64,000 nt of DNA from an uncultured Thiomicrospira sp. (GCA_965195345.1 OZ239628.1:1824001-1888000), one strand, 5' to 3'. Positions 4,847-38,511 are shown, counted from the first letter of the stretch. A program made the numbers and translations. The notes: generated by a model not told the origin, from the sequence alone.

Positions 4847-4907
4847 TATGATTAAAATGCATTTTTAACTTTAAATAATTAAAAGTGCTCAGATAGGAAA
4901 GTATATC

Positions 4908-4948
4908 TTAGAAGGTGTTGAAGCATGCTTTGTTTCAGCACCTTCTAA
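4908..4948. terminator. Stem-loop downstream of the adhesin gene (probable terminator)
   Basis: ttagaaggtgttgaa ... ttcagcaccttctaa forms a 15-bp stem with one G-U pair. Confidence 0.6.
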
Positions 4949-5277
4949 ATTTGGGAATGGATACGTCGCATTAGATTTCATGTTGCCCATTAGTCCTCTT
5001 TGTGGGATAACTTAAAATAGCCTGACTTTAGAACCTGCCCTAATGTGAACAGGGATTTATTCATACGTTTTAAGAACGCCACCTTAATACTCTCGCATTT
5101 ACCAGTAATCAAACCTTCTTCAAAAAAACCACGAATAGGATAATATTTCCGATAATTGCTATCTACCGTAAATCGTGCCAGTAATAATTGAAAAATTGTG
5201 GCTTTTGCTACTTGCAATCTCCTCATTCAAAAACTGATACAATCCAGCCACTTTATAAATTTGTAATGGAGTTTGCT

Positions 5278-13296: not shown

Positions 13297-13872
13297 TCAC
13301 ATTCTGTTGAAAGTATCTTTGATATGCTTAGCAACGTAGTGTGCAAATGATGGTCTTACTAGTAAATGAACACTACCATCTTCATTGGGCGGTCTAAAAA
13401 TAATTACTGGCGATTGCATCAACATAGTCGCAACGACTTTACCAGCAGGCAGTGCCGATCGAATATCATAGTTTATTAAATGCGACAACAATGTTTCACT
13501 CTTCAATCCACTCAATTGCAAGCATGTATATCCCCCTGAATTATCAACGACTACCATTGAGTCTTCGAACTTATCTGTTTGCTCAAGAATCGCTTGTTGA
13601 TCTCCGTTCTTTAAAACAAGTAAAAATTCATCTGGACTCATCCACAAACATAATTTTTCACCACCGGTGGTAATTTGCAACGGTTCTCCAAGATTGAACC
13701 CGAGATATTGGTGAACAATAATTTTGGCACGTTCTAAATCTTTTATACGCAAAACAAGGTAAGCATTATCAGCACATTCAATACAGTTGACTTCATCGCT
13801 CTTTATCAAAAAGCCATTTTCATCAACCATTGATTCTAATATTGAAGAAAACACTGGAGTAAAATTAATCAT
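13297..13872 (-). CDS. soxG: Heterotetrameric sarcosine oxidase-family gamma subunit
   Basis: LWMSPDEFLL, VVDNSGG, LLVRPSFAHY; overlaps the soxA stop. Confidence 0.85.
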   Translation of the reverse strand: MINFTPVFSSILESMVDENGFLIKSDEVNCIECADNAYLVLRIKDLERAKIIVHQYLGFNLGEPLQITTGGEKLCLWMSPDEFLLVLKNGDQQAILEQTDKFEDSMVVVDNSGGYTCLQLSGLKSETLLSHLINYDIRSALPAGKVVATMLMQSPVIIFRPPNEDGSVHLLVRPSFAHYVAKHIKDTFNRM

Positions 13873-16858: not shown

Positions 16859-16861
16859 AAT

Positions 16862-17140
16862 TTAAATGCCTTTTTTCTCTTTTAGGATGGCGGAAACCTC
16901 CGAAATACTGTGGTCAATGGTTGAGCGCCTAACAAGAAAGTATTTCCGACATCCCGCTGTATGCACCCATTGTTCCCACTGCTCTCCTTTATGGTTAGAA
17001 CGATAAAAAACGTAATCTGCCCATTGCTCATCGCTCAATGATTCGGGATCGATTGGACGCCCAATAAAAGCTTCCCCAGCAGGAGTAAAATCCCCCTCTT
17101 CTCTGTGCTCTTTACAGTATGGACAATATATTTCAAACAT
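16862..17140 (-). CDS. soxD: Heterotetrameric sarcosine oxidase-family delta subunit
   Basis: CPYC...WVHTAGC zinc motif; 92 aa; lies between beta and alpha. Confidence 0.95.
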   Translation of the reverse strand: MFEIYCPYCKEHREEGDFTPAGEAFIGRPIDPESLSDEQWADYVFYRSNHKGEQWEQWVHTAGCRKYFLVRRSTIDHSISEVSAILKEKKGI

Positions 17141-17152
17141 AACTTCCCTCTC

Positions 17153-18400
17153 CTAATGAGCCACACCTGCGGCACCATGTTCGTCGATAAGTGCGCCTGT
17201 GGTAAAGCGACTGATATGGAATGGTTCAGCTAATGGATGGCATTTATCTTGAGCGATGGTGTGCGCAAATACATTGCCTGAACCTGGAGTTGCCTTAAAT
17301 CCACCCGTTCCCCAACCACAATTAAAGTAAAGACCACCTACTGGCATTGGGCTTACGATTGGACAGGCGTCTGGACATACATCAACGATTCCTCCCCATT
17401 GACGATTCATTCTTACTCGTGAAAAAATAGGAAATAGCTCAATAATTGCCGCAGCACAGTGTTCAATAACATGCGATCCACCGCGTTGCGCATAAGAGTT
17501 GTATCCGTCAACACCTGCTCCAATAACCAGATCGCCTTTATCGCTTTGACTGATATATCCATGTACTGCATTTGACATGACGACTGTATTTAATACTGGC
17601 TTCATTGCTTCGGATACATACGCTTGCAATGGATGACTTTCCACAGGCAAACGCAAGCCTGCCATTTTGGCAATTACCGATGAGTTACCAGCACTAACAG
17701 AACCAATGCGGTCAGCGAGTATTTCACCTTTTGTTGTTTGCACCCCGCGCACTCGCCCATTCTCAATTTCAATGCCCATGACTTCACAATTTTGAATAAT
17801 ATCCACACCAAGACGAGCCGCTGCACGCGCAAATCCCCAAGCAACACCATCGTGCCTAGCCACCCCTGCGCGCGGTTGCCAAGACGCACCTAATATTGGA
17901 AAGCGCACATCTTTGCCTATATTGATAATAGGAATGCGATCTTTCACTTCCTGTGCATTGAGAGCCACAGCATCAACACCATTGATTAAATTTGCATTGA
18001 CTCGACGTTCAATATCTCGCATATCTTGTAAGTTGTGCCCGAGGTTAAATACCCCGCGTTGTGAGAACATAACGTTGAAATTCAAATCCTCACTTAACCC
18101 TTCCCAGAGCTTTAATGCATGTTCATAGATGCCAGCTGATTCATCCCATAAATAATTTGAGCGGATAATGGTGGTATTACGGCCAGTATTTCCGCCGCCA
18201 ATGTAACCTTTTTCTAAAACAGCCACATTCGTGATTCCACATTCTTTAGCAAGATAATAAGCGGTTGCTAAACCGTGTCCTCCGCCACCGATGATAATAA
18301 CATCGTATTTAGACTTTGGTTTTGACGCAGGAATTGCTCTAGCCCAATCTTGACCATTAAATCCTGCCTTTAATAATGATAGCCATGAATAATTTGACAT
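17153..18400 (-). CDS. soxB: Heterotetrameric sarcosine oxidase-family beta subunit
   Basis: [55 protein letters not shown]. Confidence 0.96.
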
Positions 18401-18815
18401 AAAACCGTTCAACTATAGCACCTTGATTTCAAAAGTAAATGCACATCTGTAAAAGTCCGCATTCTACCTTTTAAATAGGTACTTACGAACAATATTCTTT
18501 ACGTAAACTAAACAATATTTTTCTATACAACTGCCCTATTCCATCAAATTATCAAATACCTAACTGAACAATCCTTTATTTCTGCGTGTTCAGGGCAATA
18601 TTCAGCGCAATATTTGATTGAATCAAGTCTTTTCAAGTGAGCAAACTCTTCCCACCATCAAATAAAATAAGAGGCATACCTTATGCTATAAATGTCTAAT
18701 AAATACAAGAATAGAACCACCTATAATCATCCCTATTAAAATCCATTCATAAATCCACTCAATGCGGTTCAATCAACATCCAGTAACTAAAAACTATTAA
18801 AAAAGAGAATTTCAG

Positions 18816-20441
18816 ATGAATCACGAGACCAAAGAACAACATAACCCATTTAGTACTCCATTAGCTAGAGCGTTAGAAAAAGACGTTTCGCGCTTAAATG
18901 GAAAAACGCTGATTGATCTTGAAGATGATGCGCTTTCATTGCGTCTAGAAGTAGGTGATATCTATGCTGATTACAGCAATCACATAATTGACGATGCAAC
19001 TTTTAATCGACTGATAGGTTTGTGCAATCAGCAGGGTTTACGCTCTGCTATCGATAATTTATTTGCAGGTGACAACGTTAATTTCACTGAAGAACGAGCT
19101 GCTTTGCATGGTGCTTTGCGAGGAAGTGCAACGCATGCTGCACTCGAATCTGAAGTGCAAAATACATTAAAACGGTGTTATCGTTTGAGTAGCGACATCC
19201 GCAATAATATTTGGCGAGGCGCTGGAGGAGACGCTATTACCGACATAGTGCACATTGGCATTGGTGGTTCAGAATTGGGTCCAAAGTTCATTATTGAAGC
19301 GCTACAAGATTTTGCTGGAAGAACAAGTGAAGAATCAAAAAATACCCCTTTGCGGATACATTTTGTATCAAACGTTGATGGTTACGAATTGAATAATGTA
19401 CTGCAAAAAATTAATCCTCAATCCAGTCTTTTTATTATTGCGTCCAAATCTTTCAACACACAAGAAACACTGTTGAATGCTAAAGCTGCCAAAGCGTGGT
19501 TGTTATCTGCTTACGAGAATAATAATGCGGTCATTGCCAATCATTTCATTGCCATCAGTGCCAATATTGAAAAAGCCCACCTTTTTGGCATCCCTGAGGA
19601 TAATGTTTTCCCGATGTGGGATTGGGTTGGAGGGCGCTATTCAATATGGTCTGCTGTTGGACTTCCAGCAATCATTGCACTTGGTAAGAATCATTTCGAT
19701 AGCTTTTTACAAGGCGGGAAGCTCATGGACACGCATTTCCAATGCGCTGATTTTTCTAAAAACCTGCCGATTATTTTAGCGGTACTGGGTATTTGGTACA
19801 TCAATTTCAAAGGTTCTCAAACGCACGCATTTATTCCTTATAACCAGCCTCTGAACAAGCTCAGTTTCTATCTACAGCAATTAGAAATGGAATCCAACGG
19901 AAAATCAGTAAATAAATGGAACGAACCGATTGAGTATTCAACTGTTCCTGTTATTTGGGGCGGTACTGGCATTAACGGACAGCATGCTTATTACCAAATG
20001 TTATATCAAGGAACGAATTTAGTGCCTATTGACTTTATATTGGCGGGGCAAACCTCCTATACAGAAACATTACAACACAGTACTTTGATAGCAAATTACT
20101 TGGCGCATTCAGATGTATTGGCGCATGGATTCGATAAAGAAAATAACAATCCTCATAAGCGGGTTCTGGGCAATAGACCCTTTACAACCATTTTGCTTAA
20201 AAAACTAAATCCCGCCGCATTAGGTCAACTGATTGCCTTGTATGAACATAAGGTTTTTGTACAGAGCATTATATGGAACATCAATGCTTTTGACCAGTGG
20301 GGCGTTGAAGGTGGTAAGAAAGGCGCAAAGCATTGGGAAGAGTTCTTTTCAGAAAACAACTCTGAAAAACCAGCTATCAGTGAAAGCGCAAACTTATTGC
20401 TTGCACAAATCAGAAAGAATTCTGACCTGGGATCCAACTAG
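18816..20441 (+). CDS. pgi: Glucose-6-phosphate isomerase
   Basis: GIGGSELGP, ASKSFNTQET, DWVGGRYS, QQLEMESNGK, NGQH, FDQWGVEGGK. Confidence 0.95.
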   Translation: MNHETKEQHNPFSTPLARALEKDVSRLNGKTLIDLEDDALSLRLEVGDIYADYSNHIIDDATFNRLIGLCNQQGLRSAIDNLFAGDNVNFTEERAALHGALRGSATHAALESEVQNTLKRCYRLSSDIRNNIWRGAGGDAITDIVHIGIGGSELGPKFIIEALQDFAGRTSEESKNTPLRIHFVSNVDGYELNNVLQKINPQSSLFIIASKSFNTQETLLNAKAAKAWLLSAYENNNAVIANHFIAISANIEKAHLFGIPEDNVFPMWDWVGGRYSIWSAVGLPAIIALGKNHFDSFLQGGKLMDTHFQCADFSKNLPIILAVLGIWYINFKGSQTHAFIPYNQPLNKLSFYLQQLEMESNGKSVNKWNEPIEYSTVPVIWGGTGINGQHAYYQMLYQGTNLVPIDFILAGQTSYTETLQHSTLIANYLAHSDVLAHGFDKENNNPHKRVLGNRPFTTILLKKLNPAALGQLIALYEHKVFVQSIIWNINAFDQWGVEGGKKGAKHWEEFFSENNSEKPAISESANLLLAQIRKNSDLGSN

Positions 20442-21732
20442 TACCAGCGAGTGGAATTTTTGCCATTGCTGCCGCCTCAACAGTAAGCGCTGCCATATCT
20501 TCAGGTTCTAAATTGTGAACATCACTTTTCCCACAGGCACGGGCCAATGTTTGCACTTCTAAAGATAAACTGCTCAAATAGTTCGCAATACGCCTGCCAC
20601 CCATAACGGGATCCAATGATTTTGCTAATTTCGGATCTTGCGTAGTAATTCCCGCAGGATCATTGCCCGCTTGATATTCATAATAATAACCAGCACTGGA
20701 ACCCAATTTATTATATTCAGCTTCCAAAGCTGGATTGTTATCACCCAAAGCAATCAATGCCGCTGTGCCAATCGAAACAGCATCCGCTCCCATGGCAAGT
20801 GCCTTGGCAACATCTGCGCCAGATCGAATGCCACCAGAAACAATAAGTTGTACTTTTCGATGCATTCCTAATTCTTGCAACGCTTCAACCGCTTGACGTA
20901 CAGCTGGCAATGTCGGAATGCCAACGTGCTCAATGAATACATCCTGCGTTGCAGCTGTACCACCCTGCATACCATCAACCACCACCACATCAGCACCTGC
21001 TTTCACTGCAAGCGCGGTATCGTAATATGTACGAGCAGCACCAACTTTAATATAGATGGGTTTTTCCCAATTAGTGATTTCGCGCAATTCGGTAATTTTA
21101 ATTTCTAAGTCGTCCGGTCCTGTCCAATCAGGATGCCTACAAGCACTCCGTTGATCAATATTTTCAGGTAACTGACGCATAGATGCCACACGTTCATTTA
21201 TTTTTTGCCCAAGCAACATACCTCCACCACCGGGTTTGGCACCTTGTCCAACGACCACTTCAATGGCATCTGCCTTGCGTAAGTCATCGGGATTCATCCC
21301 GTAACGTGAAGGTAGGTACTGATAAACCAACAATGACGAATGCTCTCTCTCTTCAGGAGTCATACCTCCATCGCCTGTTGTGGTTGAAGTGCCCGCCTCG
21401 CTTGCCCCTCTACCCAAAGATTCTTTTGCTTGAGCAGAAAGTGAACCAAAGCTCATTCCAGCTATGGTTATGGGAATTTTCAATTCCAGTGGTTTTTTTG
21501 CATAACGCGTGCCTAATGTAACACTGGTGTCACAACTCTCACGATATCCCTCCAACGGATAACGAGACATGCTTGCACCTAAAAAAATCAAATCGTCAAA
21601 ATTTGGCAACGTGCGTTTTGCACCACCTCCACGAATTGAATATATCCCTTCATTTGCAGCTCGTTGGATTTCTCGGATAACGTCTTTACTGAATGTATGC
21701 GATTCGCGCAACCATGATAGATCTTGTGTCAC
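20410..21732 (-). CDS. glxD: FMN-binding glutamate-synthase-family protein GlxD (N-methylglutamate synthase subunit C, MgsC)
   Basis: SRYPLEGYRE, AGMSFGSLS, GQGAKPGGGG, RHPDWTGPDDL, DGMQGGTAAT, PLAGTSWIPG. Confidence 0.92.
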   Translation of the reverse strand: MTQDLSWLRESHTFSKDVIREIQRAANEGIYSIRGGGAKRTLPNFDDLIFLGASMSRYPLEGYRESCDTSVTLGTRYAKKPLELKIPITIAGMSFGSLSAQAKESLGRGASEAGTSTTTGDGGMTPEEREHSSLLVYQYLPSRYGMNPDDLRKADAIEVVVGQGAKPGGGGMLLGQKINERVASMRQLPENIDQRSACRHPDWTGPDDLEIKITELREITNWEKPIYIKVGAARTYYDTALAVKAGADVVVVDGMQGGTAATQDVFIEHVGIPTLPAVRQAVEALQELGMHRKVQLIVSGGIRSGADVAKALAMGADAVSIGTAALIALGDNNPALEAEYNKLGSSAGYYYEYQAGNDPAGITTQDPKLAKSLDPVMGGRRIANYLSSLSLEVQTLARACGKSDVHNLEPEDMAALTVEAAAMAKIPLAGTSWIPGQNSF

Positions 21733-21744
21733 TGTAACTTCCTC

Positions 21745-22416
21745 TTAATACGCATTATCTGTTTTAAAATGATAAAGCTTTCTGGCGGAACCATAACGCT
21801 TAAAATCACTCGGTTTTTTGTCATCAATACCTGCTGAATTTAGCAAGGATTGTAGCTGTTTAATATGTTCTTCTCGCATTTCCTTTTCTATGCAATCGGC
21901 TCCCAAAGATTTTGGTGTACCTGCCAAATAAATACGTGTTTCATAAATGGAATCACCTAATGCGTTTCCTGCATCACCGCAAATAACCAAACATCCTTTT
22001 TGAGCCATGAACGCGGACATATGCCCTACTGACCCGCGCACTACAATGTCCACGCCTTTCATGGAAATGCCACAACGCGATGAGGCATCACCATCAATCA
22101 CTACTAATCCTCCATGGGCGGTTGCGCCACAATATTGTGAAGCATTGCCTGTCACATGCACTTTTCCCGACATCATATTCTCTGCAAGTCCGGGTCCTGC
22201 ATTACCATTAATGCGAATATTGCTATGTTGATTCATACCCGCGCAATAATAACCAACGTGACCGTGTATTGTAAGTTCAATCTTAGACGTTAATCCCACC
22301 GCTATGTTATGCTTTCCTTTGGAATTTTCAATAGATGCTGTTGTTGCCGATGACGCTTTTTGCAATGCCGCGTTAACTTCTCGCAATGTTTGTGTATTAA
22401 GATCAAACGTAGTCAT
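21745..22416 (-). CDS. glxC: GXGXG-domain protein GlxC (MgsB)
   Basis: GHVGYYCAGMN, AENMMSG, RCGISMKG, FKRYGSARKLYHF; ATGA overlap with glxB. Confidence 0.92.
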   Translation of the reverse strand: MTTFDLNTQTLREVNAALQKASSATTASIENSKGKHNIAVGLTSKIELTIHGHVGYYCAGMNQHSNIRINGNAGPGLAENMMSGKVHVTGNASQYCGATAHGGLVVIDGDASSRCGISMKGVDIVVRGSVGHMSAFMAQKGCLVICGDAGNALGDSIYETRIYLAGTPKSLGADCIEKEMREEHIKQLQSLLNSAGIDDKKPSDFKRYGSARKLYHFKTDNAY

Positions 22417-23333
22417 TTCGAATTCTCCATACTCCATGAATAAATGAGTCCAGGTTCTGGCTCCCAAATGGTAGCGTTTTCATAGCCTGGTAACGTTGAA
22501 ATAGCCCTAAATTCTGACGACATCGCCACCCAATCATCATTTTCTGCCAGTATCGCTGGTTTACAGCCAATTGGATCGCGCATAACAGCAAAGCCATCAC
22601 GTGTACCAATAGCAAAGGTATAGAAACCATCCAAATCATCTTGAGCGCGCATCATTGCCTCATTCAAACTATCCCCTTTTTGCAACCGCCAGTTAAAGTA
22701 CGCTGAGGCTACTTCGCTATCGTTATCTGTGACAATGGGAATATCGTATTCAAGCAACTTACGTCGCCAAATATTGTGATTTGACAAAGAGCCGTTATGT
22801 ACCAAACAAATGTCATTACCCGTAGAGAATGGATGAGAATGCGCGGTGGTTACCGCACTTTCTGTCGCCATACGCGTGTGTCCTAATGCGTGTGTGCCGG
22901 TGTTTTGGCGCAATTGAAAGCGTTCAATCACATCGACAGGCAATCCTTTTTCTTTATAAATTTCAATCAAATTTCCACTGCTATTGATAATGCATTGAGG
23001 GTAGTTATTTTGAAACCAATCTTCAACGATGTCTCTATTGGCTTGCAATGATATCAATGCGTGTGAGTCTTTTATTTTGAATGAAACATTTGCACCAAAT
23101 GTCGATAAAAATTCTCGTTCAACATGTGTCCAATCAATAGCCTGATCGCCTCCACTGGCGCTATCAAGCACTGTGCACTTTATATAATCGGATGAAACTG
23201 GATCATGATACACAGCAAAACCAGCGCTATCGGGTCCTCTTTCAGTCATCTCTAACAGCATATCAGCAAGATAATGCCCAAGCTTTCCATGCAAAGCCTC
23301 ATTTTTTAAAAATAAACCAACAATGCCACACAT
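22413..23333 (-). CDS. glxB: Class II glutamine amidotransferase GlxB (MgsA)
   Basis: Ntn start MCGIVG, RGPDSAG, GHTRMATES, HNGSLSNHN. Confidence 0.92.
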   Translation of the reverse strand: MCGIVGLFLKNEALHGKLGHYLADMLLEMTERGPDSAGFAVYHDPVSSDYIKCTVLDSASGGDQAIDWTHVEREFLSTFGANVSFKIKDSHALISLQANRDIVEDWFQNNYPQCIINSSGNLIEIYKEKGLPVDVIERFQLRQNTGTHALGHTRMATESAVTTAHSHPFSTGNDICLVHNGSLSNHNIWRRKLLEYDIPIVTDNDSEVASAYFNWRLQKGDSLNEAMMRAQDDLDGFYTFAIGTRDGFAVMRDPIGCKPAILAENDDWVAMSSEFRAISTLPGYENATIWEPEPGLIYSWSMENSK

Positions 23334-23376
23334 TGCACTCTCCCTAATTAAAATTGCTAGTGAAGTTAATTGAGGG

Positions 23377-23409
23377 CACATTGTCAATGCCAATGTGTAT
23401 CCGTGTCAA
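23377..23409 (-). promoter_or_regulatory. Candidate glxBCD promoter (TTGACA-N18-GACAAT) overlapped by inverted repeat CACATTG-N7-CAATGTG
   Basis: Minus-strand TTGACA at 23409-23404 and GACAAT at 23385-23380; inverted repeat at 23377-23383 and 23391-23397. Confidence 0.45.
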
Positions 23410-29324: not shown

Positions 29325-30110
29325 ATGCACCCAATTCTTGAAATAAAAAACGCCACTGTTTATCAAGGGGATACCTTAGTATTTAAGGATTTAAATCTCA
29401 CCATAGATGACCAGTATAACACCGTTATTCTTGGGCCGAATGGCGCAGGGAAGAGCACGTTACTAAAACTGCTAACTCGTGAAACTTACCCCGTTAAGAA
29501 ACCCGATACCCAAATTAATATCCTAGGAGAAAAGCAATGGAACATTTGGGATCTACGCGCACATATGGGCATTCTTTCAAGTCATCTACAGAGCGAGTAC
29601 TTGTTAAATGCACCAGCAAGAAACGTTATACTTTCTGGCTTCTATTCAAGCAACGACGTAAAAACGCATCACCACTTTAGTAAAAAGCAACAACTGCGCG
29701 TTGATGAGCTGATTGCATTCTTAGATATTGCGCCTCTGCTGGATCGGGTGTTTGGTGAGCTGTCCACTGGCGAACAACGGAAATTGCTCTTTGCTCGTGC
29801 TTTAGTACATAAACCAAAATTAATGGTGTTGGATGAACCAACCAGTGGTCTCGATATTTCAGCATGTTTTGAATATATCAAGATAATTCAGCGGCTTATA
29901 AAGTCAGGGACGAAGATTCTTTTGATTACTCATCATCTCCATGAAATCCCACCAGAAATTGAGCGGGTAATTCTTCTCAAAAAAGGCGAAATCGTCCAAG
30001 ACGGATTAAAAGAGAGCATTCTAACGACAGATAATCTAGCTTATATATTTGGCACTTCGCTGAGACTAACTGAAATAGAAGGCTTCTATCACGTCTCACC
30101 TACTAAATGA
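29325..30110 (+). CDS. ABC transporter ATP-binding protein (ModF/YlmA-like, stand-alone)
   Basis: GPNGAGKS, LSTGEQRK, LDEPTSGLD, THHLHEIPP. Confidence 0.9.
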   Translation: MHPILEIKNATVYQGDTLVFKDLNLTIDDQYNTVILGPNGAGKSTLLKLLTRETYPVKKPDTQINILGEKQWNIWDLRAHMGILSSHLQSEYLLNAPARNVILSGFYSSNDVKTHHHFSKKQQLRVDELIAFLDIAPLLDRVFGELSTGEQRKLLFARALVHKPKLMVLDEPTSGLDISACFEYIKIIQRLIKSGTKILLITHHLHEIPPEIERVILLKKGEIVQDGLKESILTTDNLAYIFGTSLRLTEIEGFYHVSPTK

Positions 30111-30296
30111 CCGACATAAAAGATTTTGATGAGCAAACATGTTTGAATTTTGTCTATTAGTTCCCCTCAAATACGCCGCGTAACCACCAAATTACAGAGA
30201 TGGAAAAACACGCATTTACATTTATACGCCTGTGGAAACAAAATTTTCAACTATTAAGCCCCCAATCATTGATTTTTCAAATACAATATATGATCA

Positions 30297-31148
30297 ATGA
30301 ACATTGATCATATGCGTGCCTTTCTTGAAATTGCAGCAACAGGTAGTTTCCAACTTGCTGCTGAGAAGCTTTTTGTTACCCAATCAACTATCAGCGCACG
30401 TATCAAAGTGCTTGAAGAACAACTCAACCGTCCTTTATTCATTCGAAAACGCAACGGTTCTGAATTAACCGCTGGTGGGCATCATTTTTATCGACACGCT
30501 TTAACTGCTGTACGTGCATGGGAGCGCGCGCAAAATGAAATTGCACTGCCTGAAGATTTAAAAGCAGTGATTAACTTAGGGATACAAATCAACCACCTTG
30601 AAAAAATCTCTGATCCTTGGCTAAAATGGATGAATAAAAATCATCCTGGTGTCGCTGCTAATATCATTTCTGATTACACTGGTCCATTGATGACGCGTTT
30701 ACGCGATGGGTTGCTTGATCTTGCGATTGTATATGACCCACAGCAACGGCCTGATTTAGTCATTGAACCATACATTCGTGAAGACTTAATATTAGTTAGC
30801 TCAACTCCAAGGAATCTGCACCCGCGCTCGATTGATGATTACGTATTTATAGATTGGGGTGAGTCTTTTCGTACACAGTACAATTTAGCATTTCCAAAAG
30901 CACCGTACCCTCGCCTAACTATTAGTACGGGTAGTGTGGGATTGAATCATATATTGCTTAATGGCGGATCAGGCTACTTTCTTGAGAGCACTGTCAGACC
31001 TATGATAGACACAGGGCAACTATTTCTTGTGGGAGACGCCCCTATTTTTCAACGCCCGACTTACCTGTTATATCAAAAAACACCTTTCGATGAAAAAATG
31101 ATTTCAGCATCCGTGACAGGTTTACGTGAAGCAATCACTGGTGCATGA
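30297..31148 (+). CDS. LysR-family transcriptional regulator
   Basis: GSFQLAAEKLFVTQSTISARIKVLEEQL HTH; LDLAI; YVFIDWG (HdfR-like). Confidence 0.93.
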   Translation: MNIDHMRAFLEIAATGSFQLAAEKLFVTQSTISARIKVLEEQLNRPLFIRKRNGSELTAGGHHFYRHALTAVRAWERAQNEIALPEDLKAVINLGIQINHLEKISDPWLKWMNKNHPGVAANIISDYTGPLMTRLRDGLLDLAIVYDPQQRPDLVIEPYIREDLILVSSTPRNLHPRSIDDYVFIDWGESFRTQYNLAFPKAPYPRLTISTGSVGLNHILLNGGSGYFLESTVRPMIDTGQLFLVGDAPIFQRPTYLLYQKTPFDEKMISASVTGLREAITGA

Positions 31149-31162
31149 CTGAAAAATCCACA

Positions 31163-31867
31163 TTAAGCATTTATTGCTTGAAAAGTTAATTCAGATAAAC
31201 GCTTTCGTTGCTCGCCTGATTCATGAAAATTACTCGGTTGCAACCAGATTTCAAAAGCCTGCCTTAACTCAGACCACTCTGAATCAATACATGCGAACCA
31301 AGCCGTATCTCTGTTCTTGCCTTTAACTATCATGTGTTGTCGAAAAACACCTTCGTAACTAAAACCCAAACGCTTTGCTGCACTACGCGATGCTAAATTG
31401 AGTGCATTACATTTCCATTCATAGCGTCGATAACCCGTTTCAAATGCAAACTTCATGAACAGATACATACTCTCAGTCGCCATTATTGTTCTGCTTAACA
31501 ATGGCGAATAACAAATATGACCAACTTCTATTGTTCCCATGACTGGATTGATGTTCAGATAACTAGCCACTCCAACAGCCTTACCAGACTGTAAATCAAT
31601 AATGGCATAGAATAACGGATCTTTACTTTCAACCATACACCCCAACCAATCAATGTATTCTTCTAATGTTGCAAACGGACCATACGGAAGATAGCGCCAA
31701 ATTACCCCCTCTTTATCGATGCTATTTGCCAAAAACAAATCCTTCCCGTGTTTTTCAACATCCAACTTTTCTACTGCGCAATAACTCCCCTCAATACGCT
31801 TTCCTTGCGGAAAGCTTGCCGATTGCCAATGCAGTAACTCTTGACCCAACGTATCCGTACTATTCAT
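31163..31867 (-). CDS. GNAT N-acetyltransferase (RimJ/RimL-like)
   Basis: IEVGHI, GYRRYEWKCNALN, RLGFSYEGVFRQ, KGKNRDTAW. Confidence 0.9.
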   Translation of the reverse strand: MNSTDTLGQELLHWQSASFPQGKRIEGSYCAVEKLDVEKHGKDLFLANSIDKEGVIWRYLPYGPFATLEEYIDWLGCMVESKDPLFYAIIDLQSGKAVGVASYLNINPVMGTIEVGHICYSPLLSRTIMATESMYLFMKFAFETGYRRYEWKCNALNLASRSAAKRLGFSYEGVFRQHMIVKGKNRDTAWFACIDSEWSELRQAFEIWLQPSNFHESGEQRKRLSELTFQAINA

Positions 31868-32093
31868 CGTTAGCTCCTTTATATAATGTCATGTATACAA
31901 TGTGCATAAAACACATACTCCCGTATAAATATTCATTTAATACAACTTGCATACACTGTATTCTATCTGTTTTTTTTATAGCTCTACTTATAGGTTTACT
32001 TAACAGCGTTTCTTTATAGCATTTCTTATAATATAATTCTGTTGACTAAGTAATTGTCGCTTGCAAATATTTTATTTCAAATATAAGGATTTC

Positions 32094-33107
32094 ATGTCTA
32101 TTCTACGCCAACCACTACCCTTTCCAAAACAACAACCCATCGAATATCTATCATTAAAAAACGAACCGCATTTTAATGCATCCATTCATTTGCAGTTAGA
32201 GAAACCTGCTAACGTAACGACATTGAGTGATTTAGGATACGACTCCAAAACATGTGCTGTGATGCCTTCACAATTGGCGATCACTTCAGCATTTCGAATA
32301 CTTTCCGATGAAGGAGTAGCAACGGTATACGATTTGTGCAAGCAAATGGAATCAAACAAGAACATTGCTAATGCAACGGGAGGCGTGCGCCTCGGTTCAT
32401 TCATTCGCGGAGCAGGCTATCGTTCACAATTTATGCATGATTTATGTGCCTCCCCTGAATTGGCTCAATTTCTAAGTGGTTTGACAGGTGTTTCTGTTGG
32501 CGTTCATTCCTTACCCTCTATAGCTTGTGGTATTAACTATGCACCTCAAGATATTACTAAAGCCATTGACACTTGGCACATTGACTCCATGTCTTTTGAC
32601 ATAGTCATGTTAATGGTTGATCCTTCCACACTTAAAGGAGGAGAGTTCCAATATTTCATGGGTACAAAACAAGAAGGCAGCTCTATTCTTGGAATATCAG
32701 GAGAACAAGGTTCGATTAAAGAATTGCCCTCTGATAGAGTCGTTAGTGTACAGTTTCCAGCAGCTGGTTATGGTTTCTTGCAACATGGCAACATGGTTTT
32801 TCACCGCGCTTGCCGTCTGCACGAACCCGCCGAACGTATTACTGTTGTTCCATCGTTTGTCGTTCTTGATCCGAGTAAAAAAGATGGCACGAACATCGAT
32901 TCGCTCATGAATTGGAAGGATCCGGGCATGTTAGCTGAATTGGCAAGACACGAAGCATGGATTGCTCTAAATCATTTGGAAAATTTGATTGAAGACATTG
33001 ATCTAACTGCTCCACCTCAACAGATTGGTAAAGCATTGGATGAATCAGTTGCTAGTTTGAATCATTTCTCAGATAAGTTGAAACAGTTAAATCAAACAAA
33101 TCATTGA
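32094..33107 (+). CDS. Putative Fe(II)/2-oxoglutarate oxygenase of unknown substrate
   Basis: WHIDS (HxD, His codon 32577), KGGE, distal FHRA (His codon 32802) and ERIT Arg give the DSBH facial-triad pattern. AAGGA RBS precedes ATG 32094. Confidence 0.65.
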   Translation: MSILRQPLPFPKQQPIEYLSLKNEPHFNASIHLQLEKPANVTTLSDLGYDSKTCAVMPSQLAITSAFRILSDEGVATVYDLCKQMESNKNIANATGGVRLGSFIRGAGYRSQFMHDLCASPELAQFLSGLTGVSVGVHSLPSIACGINYAPQDITKAIDTWHIDSMSFDIVMLMVDPSTLKGGEFQYFMGTKQEGSSILGISGEQGSIKELPSDRVVSVQFPAAGYGFLQHGNMVFHRACRLHEPAERITVVPSFVVLDPSKKDGTNIDSLMNWKDPGMLAELARHEAWIALNHLENLIEDIDLTAPPQQIGKALDESVASLNHFSDKLKQLNQTNH

Positions 33108-33109
33108 TT

Positions 33110-34063
33110 ATGTCTGCCAAATCAAATCAACAAAAAATCCTCCTTACAGGCGCTGCCGGGTGTATTGGTTCTTGGGTTATCAAGCAATGCTTGGATAACG
33201 GACACGATATTGTTGCTGTCGACATCAGTGCCCAGCGTTCGCGTCTTGAACTATTGGTTGGGCAGGATAGGGCGCACTCTATCACTTGGGACGTTTGCGA
33301 CATCCGCAATAAAAATGCTCTGTTAGGAATAGCAGAAAAACATGAAGTAAATGCTATTATTCATCTAGCCGCTTTGCAAGTGCCATTTTGTAAAGCGGAC
33401 GCCACACTTGGAGCTGAAGTGAATGTCGTTGGAACCATTAACGTGTTTGAAGTGGCTCGTACACTAGGTATTAAGCGCATTGCTTACGCTTCTTCGGTTG
33501 CAGCTACCGCTATGTTCGAGAAGTCAGCTTGGTTGAAAACATTGTATGGTGCATATAAAATATGTAATGAGCAGACTGCCAAAGTGTATTGGCAAGATTA
33601 CAACATTCCCAGTGTCGGCATACGTCCAAGTGTGATTTACGGTGTTTCACGCGACCAAGGAATGAGTGCTTTGCCAAGCATTGCGATACTGGCAAGTTGC
33701 TTACAGCAACCCTTCAATATTAGCTTTCGTGGTCATGTCGGTTTTGTCTACGCAGCCAATATTGCCCATGCACTGATTCAATCGGTAAAAAATGCACACA
33801 GTGACGCACACGTCTTTGATTACAATGGCATTCAACTAAGCGTTGAGGATTTTGTCAAATCTGTAAAAAAACGATTGCCAACATCCAATATAACCATTAC
33901 GGGAGGCGAACTGCCTTTTCCATCGGACATGAGCAATCAACCTTTAATTGACCATATCGGAGAGTTTGAAGAGATTGGTATAGAAGATGGCATAACGGAA
34001 ACGATACAGCTGTTTCAATCATTGGTAAAAAGCGGGCAACTTAACTTATCACATTTAAAGTGA
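33110..34063 (+). CDS. NAD-dependent epimerase/dehydratase (extended SDR)
   Basis: TGAAGCIG, IHLAA, ASS, YGAYK (YxxxK). Confidence 0.9.
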   Translation: MSAKSNQQKILLTGAAGCIGSWVIKQCLDNGHDIVAVDISAQRSRLELLVGQDRAHSITWDVCDIRNKNALLGIAEKHEVNAIIHLAALQVPFCKADATLGAEVNVVGTINVFEVARTLGIKRIAYASSVAATAMFEKSAWLKTLYGAYKICNEQTAKVYWQDYNIPSVGIRPSVIYGVSRDQGMSALPSIAILASCLQQPFNISFRGHVGFVYAANIAHALIQSVKNAHSDAHVFDYNGIQLSVEDFVKSVKKRLPTSNITITGGELPFPSDMSNQPLIDHIGEFEEIGIEDGITETIQLFQSLVKSGQLNLSHLK

Positions 34064-34108
34064 ATTTCAAAAAATACTGCAAATTATAAATATCACAAGG
34101 AAACATAC

Positions 34109-34957
34109 ATGAAAATCATACGCTTTGGAGATAGCAATCAGGAAAAGCCAGGAATTATTGATAAAAACGGTATATTTCGAGATGCATCGGCAATAGTGGA
34201 TGATTGGCACGGCAATAGCATAGGTGCTGACTCACTTGCTCAAATAGCCGCTCATGATTTATTATCATTGCCCGCTGTGCCCTCCTCTGTGCGTCTTGGA
34301 GCACCTATTACGAACATCAGCAAAATCATCGTCATAGGATTGAACTATCGCAACCATGCTAAAGAAGCAAATATGGACGTCCCCACTGAACCAATCATGT
34401 TGTTAAAATCAACTTCTGCTGTGACAGGACCTAATGATTCAATCGAATTGCCTTTGGGTAGTTCTCAAGTGGATTGGGAAGTAGAGCTCGGCGTAGTTAT
34501 TGGCAAAAAAGCTAAAAATGTATCGGTAGAAAATGCCCTATCACACGTTGCAGGTTACACCATTGCCAATGATGTTTCTGAACGTGATTGGCAAATAAAT
34601 AGAGGCACTCAGTGGACAAAAGGCAAATGCGCTGATACATTTTGCCCACTTGGACCATGGTTAGTTACAGCAGATGAAGTGGGCGACCCACAAGATCTGC
34701 AACTTAATTTATGGGTTAATCAAGAAAATATGCAAAATGGCAACACCCATGATATGGTCTTCAATGTTGCAGATTTGGTCAGTCGCATTTCCCATTACAC
34801 CACACTAAATGCAGGTGACGTAATGATTACAGGTACACCCGCAGGTGTAGGAATTGGGCAGAAGCCTCCACGTTTTTTAAAGGCTGGAGATCATTTGCGC
34901 TTAACCATAGCAGGGTTAGGAGAACAAAACAGTGTCGTGACAGCGCCGTATGCATAA
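34109..34957 (+). CDS. Fumarylacetoacetate hydrolase-family protein
   Basis: IGLNYRNH, DWEVELGVVIG, NDVSERDWQ, KGKCADTFCPLGP, TGTPAGVG. Confidence 0.93.
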   Translation: MKIIRFGDSNQEKPGIIDKNGIFRDASAIVDDWHGNSIGADSLAQIAAHDLLSLPAVPSSVRLGAPITNISKIIVIGLNYRNHAKEANMDVPTEPIMLLKSTSAVTGPNDSIELPLGSSQVDWEVELGVVIGKKAKNVSVENALSHVAGYTIANDVSERDWQINRGTQWTKGKCADTFCPLGPWLVTADEVGDPQDLQLNLWVNQENMQNGNTHDMVFNVADLVSRISHYTTLNAGDVMITGTPAGVGIGQKPPRFLKAGDHLRLTIAGLGEQNSVVTAPYA

Positions 34958-35720
34958 TAAAGTTGTTGTTGTAACAGGTGGCGCACAAAACATTGGCAAT
35001 GCCATTGCGCACGTTTTTGCTAGCGCGGGTGCTACTACTATTATTGGTGATATAAACGCTCCAAGCGTTGAGAAAAATGTTAAAGAAAACCATGTATCGC
35101 ACATCGATTTTCATCCGCTCAATGTATGCGATGAAAAGAGCGTTGATGCCTTTTTTCGTTGGCTGGAAGAGAAATACGGGTGCATTGGCGTACTAGTCAA
35201 TAACGCTGGCATTGCTATTGAGGAAAAATTTTCTGACACCAGCCTCGATGATTGGAATAGAGTCATGGATGTCAATGTTACAGGAGTTTTTCTTTGCGCA
35301 AAAGCCGCCATCAATCAAATAAAAAAACACAACCGAAAAGGCGTCATTGTCAACATCGGTTCGATTGAAGGATTGGCAGCCAATCCCATGCATGGAGTGT
35401 ACGGTACATCTAAAGGATCAGTACACGCCATGACACGTAATATTGCCATTGATCATGGTTGTGACGGTATTCGTTGTAATGCTATTGCACCTGGTTGGAT
35501 CAATACCCCTTTCAACGATTCTTTTATACATAACTTTCCTAACCCAGAAAATGCACTTAAGGAGATTCTTGCACTGCATCCAATGGGACAAATCGGCACA
35601 CCTTCGAATGTAGGGCAGCTTGCATTATGGCTTGCAAGCGATGCTTCAGAATTCATCAACGGGCAGGTTATCTCTATTGATGGCGCACGCACAGCCAAAC
35701 TCCCCCTTCCAGCACTATGA
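34950..35720 (+). CDS. Classical SDR oxidoreductase (probably NAD-preferring)
   Basis: TGGAQNIG, acidic residue in GDIN, NNAG, YGTSK, NAIAPG. Confidence 0.92.
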   Translation: MHNKVVVVTGGAQNIGNAIAHVFASAGATTIIGDINAPSVEKNVKENHVSHIDFHPLNVCDEKSVDAFFRWLEEKYGCIGVLVNNAGIAIEEKFSDTSLDDWNRVMDVNVTGVFLCAKAAINQIKKHNRKGVIVNIGSIEGLAANPMHGVYGTSKGSVHAMTRNIAIDHGCDGIRCNAIAPGWINTPFNDSFIHNFPNPENALKEILALHPMGQIGTPSNVGQLALWLASDASEFINGQVISIDGARTAKLPLPAL

Positions 35721-36493
35721 GTGTCCCGATAAACTTCGGTAAAAGACAGTTAGATGGCAAAGTTGCTATCATAACGGGTGCCAGCAGAGGTTTGGGAAAA
35801 GCCATTTCCCAAGTTTTCGTGGATGCTCAGATGCACTTAGTGCTCGTTGCACGTGATAAAAAATCCGTTGAAAGTATTGCTCAGGATTTACGAAACAGTG
35901 GTCAAAAAATCGTAACAGTTATCGGCGATGTTCGCGATGAATCTTTTTGTAACTCAATCGTTGAAAACGCCGTTCAACACTTCGGGAAGATAGATGTTTT
36001 AGTCAATAATGCTGGTGTTATTGGTCGCTTACCTATCATCGAAACATCAACGAGCGAATGGAAGCGCGTAATGGAAACAAATTTAGACGCTGTTTTTTAT
36101 CTGTCTCGTGCCGCCATTCAACATATGTCATCTGGAAGCACTATTATAAATGTCGCATCAACTGTATCTGCATTGGGGTGCGCCAACCTTGTCCCTTATT
36201 GCGCCAGCAAAGGGGCCGTAGCTAATTTCACCCGTGCACTTGCACTTGAACTTGCTCCCAGAAAAATCACCGTGAACGCCATTTCCCCAGGCGCAATGGA
36301 TTCTCCTATGTTAATGTCTGAACATAAGGAAAATGTGACAGAAGAGATGGTACGAAAAATGAATTGCGACAGTATCCCTCAAGGGCGAATTGCCAATGTA
36401 TATGAAGTTGCAAGAGGTGCTTTATACTTAGCGCAAGAAATGCATTCAACGGGCGTTATTTTACCTATTGATGGCGGGTATACTGCTCAATGA
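35717..36493 (+). CDS. Classical SDR oxidoreductase (probably NADP-preferring)
   Basis: TGASRGLG, basic residue in VARD, NNAG, YCASK, NAISPG, IDGGYTAQ. Confidence 0.92.
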   Translation: MSVPINFGKRQLDGKVAIITGASRGLGKAISQVFVDAQMHLVLVARDKKSVESIAQDLRNSGQKIVTVIGDVRDESFCNSIVENAVQHFGKIDVLVNNAGVIGRLPIIETSTSEWKRVMETNLDAVFYLSRAAIQHMSSGSTIINVASTVSALGCANLVPYCASKGAVANFTRALALELAPRKITVNAISPGAMDSPMLMSEHKENVTEEMVRKMNCDSIPQGRIANVYEVARGALYLAQEMHSTGVILPIDGGYTAQ

Positions 36494-36619
36494 GCGATCG
36501 GTTTTCAAAAGAGTGAAGCAGTAGTCATTTAAATCGTTTAAAAAAGAGAATATAAAATCGCGTGAGAGTATTCAGTGTGAAGGGGCTCATCTGAAATATT
36601 TTCTCAAATACTTGGACAA

Positions 36620-37723
36620 CTACAAAATAGCACGTTCCTTTCGATCGATGACATTAATGATATCTAAAGGAGTCAACCCTTCCATGCACTTTATAGGATT
36701 GTAGCAATGGCTGTTACTTTTCACTAAATTACAAGGGCAACACGACAAATTTTTAACAATAAGTGCTTGATGCCTGTTGTTATAGATAGGGAAACTTGAT
36801 TCTGGAGCAAGCAAGCCAAATAATCCTATAACGCTAGGACCATCGGTTGATAACGCCAAATGCATGAATCCTGAATCGGTTGCTACAACCCACTGACATT
36901 GCTGCAAAAAAGCGGCAGCAACTGTAATGGGCTCTTCAATGATGGGGATTTTTGCATCTACTGCATCTAATAATTTTTGAGTTGCCTGCGTTTCTCCCGG
37001 ACCTACTACTGCCACAGGCAACATCTCCTTTAAAATTAACAGATTAACAAACTTAATCCAGTAGGCACTTGGCCACGTTCGTCTGTAATCTCTTGCAAAA
37101 GGATTAAACGCTAATAACGGTCTCTTATCTGGGTTAATATTTTGGGCAATATTTCGCGCTTTTGCATACGTTTTTTCATCACCCCAATAGTGGCGACGAT
37201 ACACGTCAACAGGCTCTAATCCGATAGCCCTTAGAAGATCAAAATGATTTTCACCTCGATAACGATCGTGAAACTCCTTGTGCAATCGAACCGTTAAAAA
37301 CATTCCCCTGCCATCGCTATCGTAGCCTACTCGATTAGGCACATTTGCAAGCCACATCGCCAGCGCAGCATGAATGTTCCCAGAAAGCAATAGCGCAAGA
37401 TCAAACGATTTCTCTTGCATCTTTTTAATGACCTGCCATTGATATTTCTTCGTTTCTTTAGATGAAAAAGGAACACATTCGTCTACATAAGGGCAATGCT
37501 GCATAAGCTCAAATCCATGACGATTGATGAGATTCATAATATGCGCATTGGGGAAAAGTCGGCGCACTTCTCGAAAAAATGCGCTTCCAATGGCTAAATC
37601 CCCTAAAGGATCAATCCCTCTAATAACAATTTTTTTAACACTTGAAGTATCAAAGTATTTGGCACGAATTAGCCTCGCATCACGATCAACAAAATCACTG
37701 GAGACTGTAAAAGTATTCACCAA
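36620..37723 (-). CDS. Glycosyltransferase family 9 (heptosyltransferase-like)
   Basis: LGDL, RRLFPNAHI, DSGFMHLA, GLFG, C-terminal CCPC...C...CM motif. Confidence 0.85.
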   Translation of the reverse strand: MVNTFTVSSDFVDRDARLIRAKYFDTSSVKKIVIRGIDPLGDLAIGSAFFREVRRLFPNAHIMNLINRHGFELMQHCPYVDECVPFSSKETKKYQWQVIKKMQEKSFDLALLLSGNIHAALAMWLANVPNRVGYDSDGRGMFLTVRLHKEFHDRYRGENHFDLLRAIGLEPVDVYRRHYWGDEKTYAKARNIAQNINPDKRPLLAFNPFARDYRRTWPSAYWIKFVNLLILKEMLPVAVVGPGETQATQKLLDAVDAKIPIIEEPITVAAAFLQQCQWVVATDSGFMHLALSTDGPSVIGLFGLLAPESSFPIYNNRHQALIVKNLSCCPCNLVKSNSHCYNPIKCMEGLTPLDIINVIDRKERAIL

Positions 37724-38109
37724 TACCTCTTATTATCAGGATGTTCGTCGGCAATAGTTATTGTTCCTAAAAGGATGTAAAGTAATAACTTGCTCTAAAA
37801 GATGACGGAAATTTAGTATGTGTATTCATAGCCATCTCAAGTTCATCTCCTCAAATACTATGCTTATTCTGCCCGTCTTTAAATCAATCAAATAGTAGTA
37901 TCAGAGACACAATCAAAGTGCATTATATAAGATAGTGTGAAAAGATCATATGCAATGATAATCACGCGCTTTATCAATTCCTTATGACTTCAATCCATTC
38001 AGAGCATGGATGTAAGCTATCTGGATGGTTAAAAAATTCTAATTTTAAATGTACCATCACGCATTAACAGTCATAATAAGCGACATGATTATTTTTTGGC
38101 ATCACCAGC

Positions 38110-38511
38110 ATGATAGATCACTTCAATCTCCCAGTATCAAACCTTGAGCGCAGTGCCAACTTCTATGAAGTAACACTGGCAAGCCTAAACATAGAACTGT
38201 TAATGCGAGATGGAGACGCTGTTGGCTTTGGCAAAAATACATGGGAGTTTGGTATCGTCCATGAATCAAGAGAGTTGATACAAATGCATTGTGCATTTAT
38301 TGCGCATTCTCAAGAAGAGGTGCGAAGATTCTATGCAGCAGCATTGGAAGCTGGAGGCATTGACAATGGTGCTCCAGGATTACGAACCGAATATGCGCCG
38401 TCATATTATTCAGCCTACGTGCTTGATCCTGATGGTCACAATATTGAAGCGGTATGCAGGTGTGACAACCTAGATATGCCTAACAAGGTAATAAACCTAG
38501 GCACAATATAA
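38110..38511 (+). CDS. VOC/glyoxalase-family protein
   Basis: MIDH, HCAF, GGIDNGAPGLR, YYSAYVLDPDGHNIEAVC. Confidence 0.92.
   Translation: MIDHFNLPVSNLERSANFYEVTLASLNIELLMRDGDAVGFGKNTWEFGIVHESRELIQMHCAFIAHSQEEVRRFYAAALEAGGIDNGAPGLRTEYAPSYYSAYVLDPDGHNIEAVCRCDNLDMPNKVINLGTI

Follow-up and report, generated by a model that had tools for sequence, protein, structure and literature searches.

A conserved gene set of a 2-oxoglutarate oxygenase, three short-chain dehydrogenases and a FAH-family hydrolase as a candidate operon for betaine catabolism in marine bacteria

The window analysed here, a 64,000-nucleotide stretch of DNA from an uncultured Thiomicrospira sp. (GCA_965195345.1 OZ239628.1:1824001-1888000), carries a strongly conserved module of five genes, g1 to g5, encoding an Fe(II)/2-oxoglutarate (2OG) oxygenase, an extended short-chain dehydrogenase/reductase (SDR), a FAH-family hydrolase and two classical SDRs. 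The feature is real and is best read as a betaine catabolic operon, probably of the proline-betaine type. We give an even chance to the proposal that the five genes break down a quaternary-amine osmolyte, namely (hydroxy)proline betaine or a close analogue, and regard as tentative the particular route in which the ring of (hydroxy)proline betaine would be opened oxidatively, with no prior N-demethylation, to yield pyruvate and dimethylglycine. None of the enzyme families is new; the novelty lies in how they are combined, in the clade to which g1 belongs and in the probable pathway.

Gene order and its conservation were established by computational comparison of loci. A scan covering one genome per species returned 80 loci, 69 of the module type and 11 carrying distant g1 paralogues. 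At least 4.7 kb of sequence lay downstream of g1 in 48 of the 66 loci whose g1 is at least 50% identical, and 43 of these 48 keep the order g1-g2-g3-g4-g5 on the same strand, which is more than a chance neighbourhood; the remaining five are partial sets. The grouping of the five genes put forward in the original prediction is therefore a conserved one. The carriers, from the Gamma- and Alphaproteobacteria, are labelled Luminiphilus/Halieaceae, Porticoccaceae/SAR92, Arenicellales, Ca. Persebacter, unclassified Gammaproteobacteria, Hellea, Litorimonas and Hyphomonadaceae/Caulobacterales, and they include sponge-symbiont-type metagenome-assembled genomes (MAGs); one further carrier is a MAG labelled Polaribacter. 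The distribution is patchy across classes, and among the relatives of the window's genome g1 occurs in 3 of 31 genomes including its own (2 of 30 relatives, both of the same genus). At least three related loci (L012, L020, L064) come from cultured carriers, among which are Hellea balneolensis DSM 19091, Litorimonas sp. RW-G-Af-16 and Ca. Seongchinamella marina IMCC8485. The distant paralogues (37–44% identity; L068, L070-L072, L074-L080), found in Arenicellales, Steroidobacteraceae, Kiloniellaceae and others, lack the four partner genes, and no shared neighbourhood recurs around the 11 of them, so that these loci give no clue to the substrate of the g1 family.

The genes that surround the module in other genomes point to betaines. 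Neighbouring open reading frames (ORFs) of the 69 module-type loci were clustered and the cluster representatives scanned against Pfam. At least one betaine-type neighbour is present at 44 of the 57 module loci that have at least 3 kb of flank; among the paralogue loci the same gene classes appear at 1 of 11, as a generic ABC-transporter ATPase. Specifically, an HpbD-like gene of the enolase superfamily lies directly beside the module in 20 of the 69 loci, a BCCT transporter gene lies near it in 17 (any BCCT/OpuAC-type transporter gene in 22), and a co-directional set of MttB-family, corrinoid-binding, pterin-binding methyltransferase, RamA-RACo, DUF1638 and MetF-like methylenetetrahydrofolate reductase (MTHFR) genes accompanies it in 13. 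Sarcosine-oxidase, DAO or GCV_T genes occur near the module in eight loci and an Ldh_2-family gene in three. A few Hellea-type loci also have Rieske and DAO genes nearby (3 and 5–6 of 69), none of them inside the module. The MttB-containing set corresponds to MtgBCD, which in the available text of PMC12478193 is a cobalamin-dependent glycine betaine demethylation system of marine bacteria, with RamA, DUF1638 and MetF2; the same paper remarks that where MttB has multiple paralogues these may act on other methylated compounds.

At least five arrangements of these neighbours can be told apart. Halieaceae have the order Mtg genes-module-enolase and Porticoccaceae module-enolase-LysR; some Hellea show LysR-DAO-GCV_T-BCCT-module-sox and others module-methyltransferase-BCCT; OpuAC ABC-module occurs in some Gammaproteobacteria, and Litorimonas has a divergent enolase gene. 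Because the arrangements differ between lineages, the link to betaine genes is not one inherited accident, though many of the loci are close kin.

The enolase-superfamily neighbour brings the substrate into closer focus. It scores 526–548 bits against Paracoccus denitrificans HpbD (4E8G/4IZG/4J1O) and 448–483 bits against the Pelagibaca bermudensis structures 2PMQ/4H2H, all of which are proline betaine racemases/hydroxyproline betaine 2-epimerases. As described in the available part of PMC3950512, HpbD is a racemase towards proline betaine and an epimerase towards hydroxyproline betaine; K164 and K266 serve as its catalytic bases, D194, E219 and D242 bind the metal, and D293 and W312 bind the substrate. 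In 19 HpbD-like copies K164, D193, E218, D241, K264 and D291 are invariant and match the named residues once two one-residue indels are allowed; two Trp residues are also invariant, neither of which maps with certainty to W312.

Further genes accompany the module in individual lineages. In two Halieaceae-type loci (L038 at 4102-5749, and L059), a gamma-butyrobetaine-hydroxylase-like TauD-family gene and an HD-domain gene, falling in the same clusters (c144 and c146) in both, stand just upstream of the module between Mtg-type and BCCT genes. Five Hellea/Caulobacterales-type loci (L007, L008, L015, L017, L025) carry a gene for a 211-aa class-I S-adenosylmethionine methyltransferase between g5 and a BCCT gene, some 4.3 kb downstream from where g1 starts. 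The two relatives of the same genus (L001 and L002, 12397-13719, + strand) have a 440–445-aa gene of the M24 family (creatinase/prolidase-type) after g5, as well as an additional SDR gene and an MTHFR-like gene ahead of g1. The window's locus has none of these three genes; its genome holds an M24 homologue, 46% identical, at 686-687 kb.

The product of g1 stands apart from named families at the sequence level. No NCBIfam family matches it, a sequence search of the PDB gives chance matches only (E 0.37), and its one Pfam match, HalD PF23169, is weak (23.8 bits, E 3.4e-5) and falls under the gathering cut-off of 26, although the same match is precomputed for some g1 homologues. A large protein search recovers 369 relatives at E<=0.001, the best 120 of which are 51–62% identical, and all seven among the matches listed that carry a source name are called 'hypothetical protein'. 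At 50% clustering the wider family numbers 704 representatives at E<=0.001, a count that falls to 140 when the limit is E<=1e-30, and its neighbours in the ESM-Atlas are either 'hypothetical' or HalD-like, with HalD in 19–31% of members.

Structure prediction assigns g1 a clear fold. The AlphaFold (AF2) model (predicted local distance difference test score 89.3, predicted template-modelling score 0.89) adopts the double-stranded beta-helix expected from the original prediction, extended at the C-terminus by helices 279-301 and 308-335. Foldseek returns 190 PDB matches at E<=0.001, and those listed are all 2OG oxygenases, headed by the BesD-family hydroxylase 7jsd, HalA, HalB, BesD and HalD (E 6e-8 to 5e-7, 13–19% identity). 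VIA-align places the model at Z 16–17 to the BesD/Hal group, with HalB at Z 17.2 (root-mean-square deviation 3.5 Å over 221 aligned residues); MysH, SnoK/SnoN (Z 14.5–14.9) and lysyl and proline hydroxylases trail at Z 13–15, so the lead of the BesD/Hal group over these is modest.

The predicted active site agrees with this placement. The WHxD...GG...HR...R spacing noted earlier is fully retained: W161-H162-x-D164, G182-G183, H237-R238 and R248 are invariant in a 31-sequence alignment of g1 homologues. By motif position, H162, D164 and H237 are assigned as the iron triad and R248 as the basic residue for the C5 carboxylate of 2OG. In radical halogenases of the BesD type the triad carboxylate is swapped for Gly or Ala, which opens the halide site. 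Since the triad Asp164 is kept in all 31 sequences, g1 is by its sequence hydroxylase-type rather than halogenase-type, as had been proposed. Overall, g1 shares with BesD, HalA, HalB and HalD (PF23169), as presented in the accessible part of PMC10041140, the double-stranded beta-helix, structural scores of Z 16–17 and the character of a free-standing small-molecule oxygenase, but differs from them in its 12–18% identity, the retained triad Asp, about 80 additional residues with the C-terminal helices, and a catabolic rather than biosynthetic context.

The hydrolase g3 belongs to the FAH family through its C-terminal domain (FAA_hydrolase PF01557, 257.9 bits against a cut-off of 23.9). Its motifs D122-W-E124-x-E126 and N-D155-x-S-x-R are conserved in 53 sequences (the window protein and its orthologues) and contain residues that we take to be metal ligands. 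The nearest solved structure is 8gsr, L-2,4-diketo-3-deoxyrhamnonate hydrolase (LRA6; 2.7e-92, 312 bits), whereas g3 does not reach the equivalog NF053535 for 2,4-didehydro-3-deoxy-L-rhamnonate hydrolase (388.1 bits against a cut-off of 500). FAH-family enzymes of the LRA6/FucG type split a 2,4-diketo acid into pyruvate and a carboxylic acid, according to the available text of PMC11199699. We infer from this kinship that g3 is a probable acylpyruvate (2,4-dioxo acid) C-C hydrolase.

The three dehydrogenases divide into one extended and two classical SDRs. In g2, which matches Epimerase PF01370 at 96.8 bits, T13-G14-x-x-G17-x-x-G20, Y146 and K150 are invariant over 24 sequences, the pattern of an extended SDR; a fold search with its model gives GalE-like L-threonine dehydrogenases at Z 29.1 and UDP-sugar 4-epimerases at Z 28.7, and because these lie within 1 Z of each other the fold does not settle its specificity. 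The classical SDRs g4 and g5 score 168.5 and 196 bits against adh_short, with TGxxxGxG, NNAG and YxxxK conserved. Cofactor residues are at least 95% conserved in all three, as judged from alignments of the window protein with its orthologues (54, 62 and 51 sequences for g4, g2 and g5): Asp34 of g4 and Asp40 of g2 are NAD-type, and Arg46 of g5 is NADP-type. The opposite cofactor fingerprints ascribed earlier to the two classical SDRs, g4 versus g5, are thus present. Matches in the PDB describe g4 as a generic classical SDR, and g5 has no PDB match at E<=1e-40.

A scheme that would join these activities can be drawn for (hydroxy)proline betaine; its substrate, step order and products are our proposal. 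Using 2OG and O2, g1 would hydroxylate a ring carbon, which at C4 would give hydroxyproline betaine. The 4-hydroxyl, whether introduced by g1 or already present in hydroxyproline betaine, would be converted to a ketone by an NAD-type dehydrogenase, g2 or g4, forming 4-oxoproline betaine. Quaternised Mannich bases readily lose a nitrogen that is beta to a carbonyl. In the same manner the quaternary nitrogen of 4-oxoproline betaine would leave and the ring would open to a 5-(dimethylamino)-4-oxo acid, and hydration and oxidation at C2 would lead to 5-(dimethylamino)-2,4-dioxopentanoate. Acting as an acylpyruvate hydrolase, g3 would then cleave this compound into pyruvate and dimethylglycine, the latter passing to the dimethylglycine and sarcosine oxidation genes of the genome. 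In a shorter variant, g1 might hydroxylate C2 of hydroxyproline betaine, which would at once open the ring and give 5-(dimethylamino)-4-hydroxy-2-oxopentanoate. The NADP-type g5 may serve as a reductase or handle the other stereoisomer, and HpbD, where present, would let both C2 epimers in.

Parts of this scheme have parallels. In the sugar routes covered by the accessible part of PMC11199699, an SDR makes the diketo acid by oxidising the C4 hydroxyl of a 2-keto-3-deoxy acid, and SDRs of the fucose route, like mammalian BDH2, also oxidise cis-4-hydroxy-L-proline to 4-oxoproline with the substrate bound as a five-membered ring; by analogy, the latter reaction offers a precedent for the proposed oxidation of the 4-hydroxyl. 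The product fits as well, because dimethylglycine/sarcosine genes lie near the module elsewhere and are present in the window's own genome. The idea of an undescribed pathway that hydroxylates, oxidises and then cleaves a marine small molecule, advanced in the original prediction, is supported as a reading, and the fold of g1, the conservation of the gene set and the comparison with sugar-acid pathways all left it standing. In the literature covered, which excluded subscription-only papers and bioRxiv supplements, we found no description of the five-gene set or of a 2OG-dependent proline betaine route.

The closest described system by substrate is the HpbD pathway of Paracoccus denitrificans, Rhodobacter sphaeroides and Pelagibaca bermudensis (PMC3950512, available part), which likely handles the same substrate class as the module: its racemase/epimerase has an orthologue beside the module in the 20 loci mentioned above, and LysR regulators and betaine transporters lie near. 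In that pathway Rieske (HpbB/C) and flavin (HpbA) demethylases strip the methyl groups and the ring is kept, whereas the module lacks these enzymes and contains a 2OG oxygenase, three SDRs and a C-C hydrolase instead, a set that implies ring opening and a different carbon fate. MtgBCD, co-directional with the module in 13 of 69 loci, is likewise a separate system (PMC12478193, available part). It removes methyl groups and does not cleave the carbon skeleton, and it is absent from the window's genome, where no protein matches the MttB family (PF06253).

Several observations weigh against assigning the module to (hydroxy)proline betaine. The proline-betaine link rests on 20 of 69 loci, and the loci are mostly MAGs and phylogenetically non-independent. 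An orthologue of HpbD is missing from the window's own genome, where the closest enolase-superfamily match reaches 28% identity, and likewise from all of five other module genomes that lack an adjacent copy (0/5, best 34% identity). The immediate neighbours of the module in the window are LysR, GNAT, GT9, glyoxalase and suf genes rather than betaine genes, and the window's LysR resembles those beside the module elsewhere only at the level of the helix-turn-helix and is not orthologous to them. The simplest scheme needs one or two dehydrogenases and the module has three, two NAD-type and one NADP-type. The possibility that g4 is a recognisable KDF-dehydrogenase-type enzyme was rejected, as the L-KDF dehydrogenase and BDH2 structures lie outside its best 60 PDB matches. 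Finally, the known BesD-family enzymes discussed in the available part of PMC10041140 use free primary amino acids, not betaines. The absence of HpbD and Mtg from the window's genome, and of HpbD also from the five other module genomes, identifies both as accessories and the five genes as a self-sufficient core.

A less likely alternative is another quaternary amine or N-methylated amino acid, such as N-trimethyl-ornithine or -lysine, delta-valerobetaine, homoserine betaine or a carnitine-type compound, whose breakdown by the same module would also end in acylpyruvate hydrolysis, for example to glycine betaine or beta-alanine betaine plus pyruvate. The BCCT/OpuAC transporters and MtgBCD-type genes are generic for betaines and would suit such a substrate. 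Moreover, 5-(trimethylammonio)-2,4-dioxopentanoate would yield glycine betaine, which is the substrate of the adjacent Mtg system as characterised in the accessible text of PMC12478193 and would explain the Mtg genes. The gamma-butyrobetaine-hydroxylase-like gene beside the module in two loci, the activity of BesD-family enzymes on lysine and ornithine skeletons (PMC10041140, available part) and the occurrence of the module without HpbD in all six of the genomes checked point the same way. A linear betaine nevertheless leaves HpbD unexplained. The HpbD-like gene is the sole substrate-specific neighbour, with 526–548 bits and the named residues kept, and the module includes no aminotransferase or amino-acid oxidase that could turn an alpha-amino acid into a 2-oxo acid. 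A pathway for a free basic amino acid, in which g1, like the BesD-family hydroxylase, would hydroxylate lysine or ornithine (here at C4 or C5) and oxidation and cleavage would follow, draws on the fact that the top structural matches of g1 bind lysine and ornithine; it is very unlikely, given identities to those enzymes of 12–18%, a Pfam match under the cut-off, the lack of an aminotransferase, deaminase or amino-acid transporter in the module, and a context of betaine genes.

A sugar substrate is quite unlikely. Such a variant of the non-phosphorylative deoxy-sugar/pentonate 'route 3' would have an SDR oxidise C4 of a 2-keto-3-deoxy sugar acid and g3 cleave the resulting diketo acid to pyruvate and lactate or glycolate, with g1 and g2 tailoring an unusual sugar. 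The resemblance to route 3 of L-fucose and L-rhamnose (FucF/LRA5 and FucG/LRA6; PMC11199699, available part) lies in an SDR gene coupled to a FAH-family hydrolase gene, with the expected chemistry of C4-hydroxyl oxidation and 1,3-diketone hydrolysis to pyruvate and an acid. The best match of g3 is LRA6 and an SDR gene overlaps g3, g2 belongs to a sugar epimerase/dehydratase family, and sugar-modifying enzymes of the SnoK/SnoN type are among the structural neighbours of g1. The module is nonetheless unlike route 3: it has no sugar dehydrogenase, lactonase or dehydratase, g3 scores too low for the LRA6 equivalog, neither g4 nor g5 stands particularly near L-KDF dehydrogenase, and the neighbours are of the betaine rather than the sugar type (44 of 57 loci). 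Over the 69 loci, the conserved genes beside the module include none for a sugar-acid dehydratase, lactonase, mutarotase or sugar transporter, and the sole enolase-superfamily neighbour resembles HpbD rather than FucD/RhamD. Sugar 1-dehydrogenase, lactonase and sugar-acid dehydratase are all missing from the conserved neighbour clusters of these loci, to which the search was confined, the window's whole genome not having been searched for them. The five genes match no complete described sugar-acid pathway, the terminal SDR and FAH pair being the only part that resembles route 3. Biosynthesis of a hydroxylated osmolyte or small secondary metabolite, suggested by the biosynthetic roles of the relatives BesD, Hal and MysH, is highly improbable, as the module lacks a ligase, nonribosomal peptide synthetase or polyketide synthase, exporter and precursor-supply genes, includes a C-C hydrolase, and is found next to uptake systems and alongside demethylation genes in streamlined genomes of 1.9–2.1 Mb.

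The window's own genome, a single 1.92-Mb contig that is 99.7% complete, contains ample machinery for methylated amines at a distance from the module. Within the window, a heterotetrameric sarcosine oxidase set soxBDAG (SoxG, SoxA and a DAO-type SoxB) lies at 13297-18412 (-), N-methylglutamate-synthase-type genes (GATase, GXGXG, Glu_synthase) at 20410-23393 (-), a glutamine-synthetase-like fragment at the window edge (28-771, +), and an electron-transfer flavoprotein-ubiquinone oxidoreductase gene at 5188-6918 (+). The surrounding N-methyl catabolism that had been invoked is therefore present, but at least 14 kb from the operon; of the suggestion that the substrate is an amino acid or betaine, the betaine part gains from the neighbours in other genomes, while the window's neighbours, with sarcosine-oxidase genes 14 kb away, add little to it. 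The genome holds one BCCT gene, far from the module. A second methylated-amine island at about 92-122 kb (L084, L085) comprises an Ldh_2-family gene, an OpuAC ABC transporter, formate-tetrahydrofolate ligase, two GmaS-like genes, DAO genes, a second N-methylglutamate gene set, a second SoxA-like protein and a Rieske oxygenase, together with a 765-aa DUF1989+GCV_T protein, presumably TMAO-demethylase-like in architecture. In addition, three paralogous ORFs of 804–811 aa (390735-393164, 704208-706643 and 1746567-1748981) bear an N-terminal GGGxxG dinucleotide-binding motif and a C-terminal part that matches the GCV_T/folate-binding region of SoxA by tblastn, and look dimethylglycine- or sarcosine-dehydrogenase-like.

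Two genes with a homocysteine-S-methyltransferase domain are present in this genome and rule out the module as its only source of dimethylglycine. At 1415735-1418013 (L081), a 360-aa homocysteine-S-methyltransferase-domain gene stands directly upstream of an enolase-superfamily gene 28% identical to HpbD, and this could be another betaine-related pair. Elsewhere in the window, positions 1064-4846 (+) encode a protein of 1260 aa that combines NHL and FG-GAP repeats with a GbpA_2 (GlcNAc-binding protein) domain and may be a surface or host-contact protein.

The layout of the module is compact (Table 1). As first described, the five genes are tightly packed and co-oriented, with gaps of 2 and 45 bp and overlaps of 8 bp (g3/g4) and 4 bp (g4/g5). 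For g1, the ATG at 32094 is taken as the start, since homologues begin there, although TTG 32061 is also open; g2 starts with an ATG 2 bp after the g1 stop, and an alternative TTG at 33104 would create a 4-bp overlap with g1. The 45-bp gap between g2 and g3 holds AAGGAAAC, a ribosome-binding-like site. A divergent GNAT gene flanks the module upstream and a convergent GT9 glycosyltransferase gene downstream. Pattern scans for sigma-70 promoters and terminators found 12 and 3 sites, fewer than the 18.1 and 5.5 expected from shuffles, and an Rfam scan of 30000-38500 at E<=1 gave no match. The sequencing runs listed as containing this DNA number four, all from one study, and none of them is an RNA run. 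As the transcript ends lack pattern support, the assignment of the five genes to one putative operon follows solely from spacing and conservation.

Table 1. The five-gene module and its upstream spacer in the window, positions counted from the first nucleotide of the stretch
Feature	Position	Strand	Remarks
Intergenic spacer, 226 bp, A+T-rich	31868..32093		presumed promoter/regulatory region upstream of g1
g1, 337-aa Fe(II)/2-oxoglutarate oxygenase, BesD/Hal-like clade	32094..33107	+	H162-x-D164...H237, R248; hydroxylase-type
g2, extended SDR, GalE/L-threonine-dehydrogenase-like fold	33110..34063	+	GxxGxxG, YxxxK, NAD-type Asp40
g3, FAH-family hydrolase, closest relative LRA6	34109..34957	+	PF01557, NF053535, 8gsr
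g4, classical SDR, NAD-type	34950..35720	+	Asp34; adh_short/adh_short_C2
g5, classical SDR, NADP-type	35717..36493	+	Arg46; adh_short/adh_short_C2

In the exchange between bacteria and marine algae or animals, osmolytes that contain nitrogen serve as a major currency, and the genes that act on betaines beyond glycine betaine, choline and carnitine are poorly known. The module is carried by abundant coastal clades and by streamlined symbiont-type genomes, and it is unnamed in every labelling source. Because cultured carriers exist and the five enzymes are small and soluble, the proposed function is directly testable. Assigning that function would add a marker gene set for osmolyte turnover, would add quaternary amines as a substrate class for BesD/Hal-like oxygenases, which is of biocatalytic interest, and would give the acylpyruvate-hydrolase step of deoxy-sugar catabolism a second use. 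If the ring-opening reading for (hydroxy)proline betaine is true, coastal bacterioplankton (OM60/NOR5, SAR92), alga-associated Hellea and Litorimonas and small-genome Gammaproteobacteria of the invertebrate-symbiont type would commonly carry such a route, and g1 would represent a new clade of Fe(II)/2OG oxygenases acting on a quaternary-ammonium amino acid.

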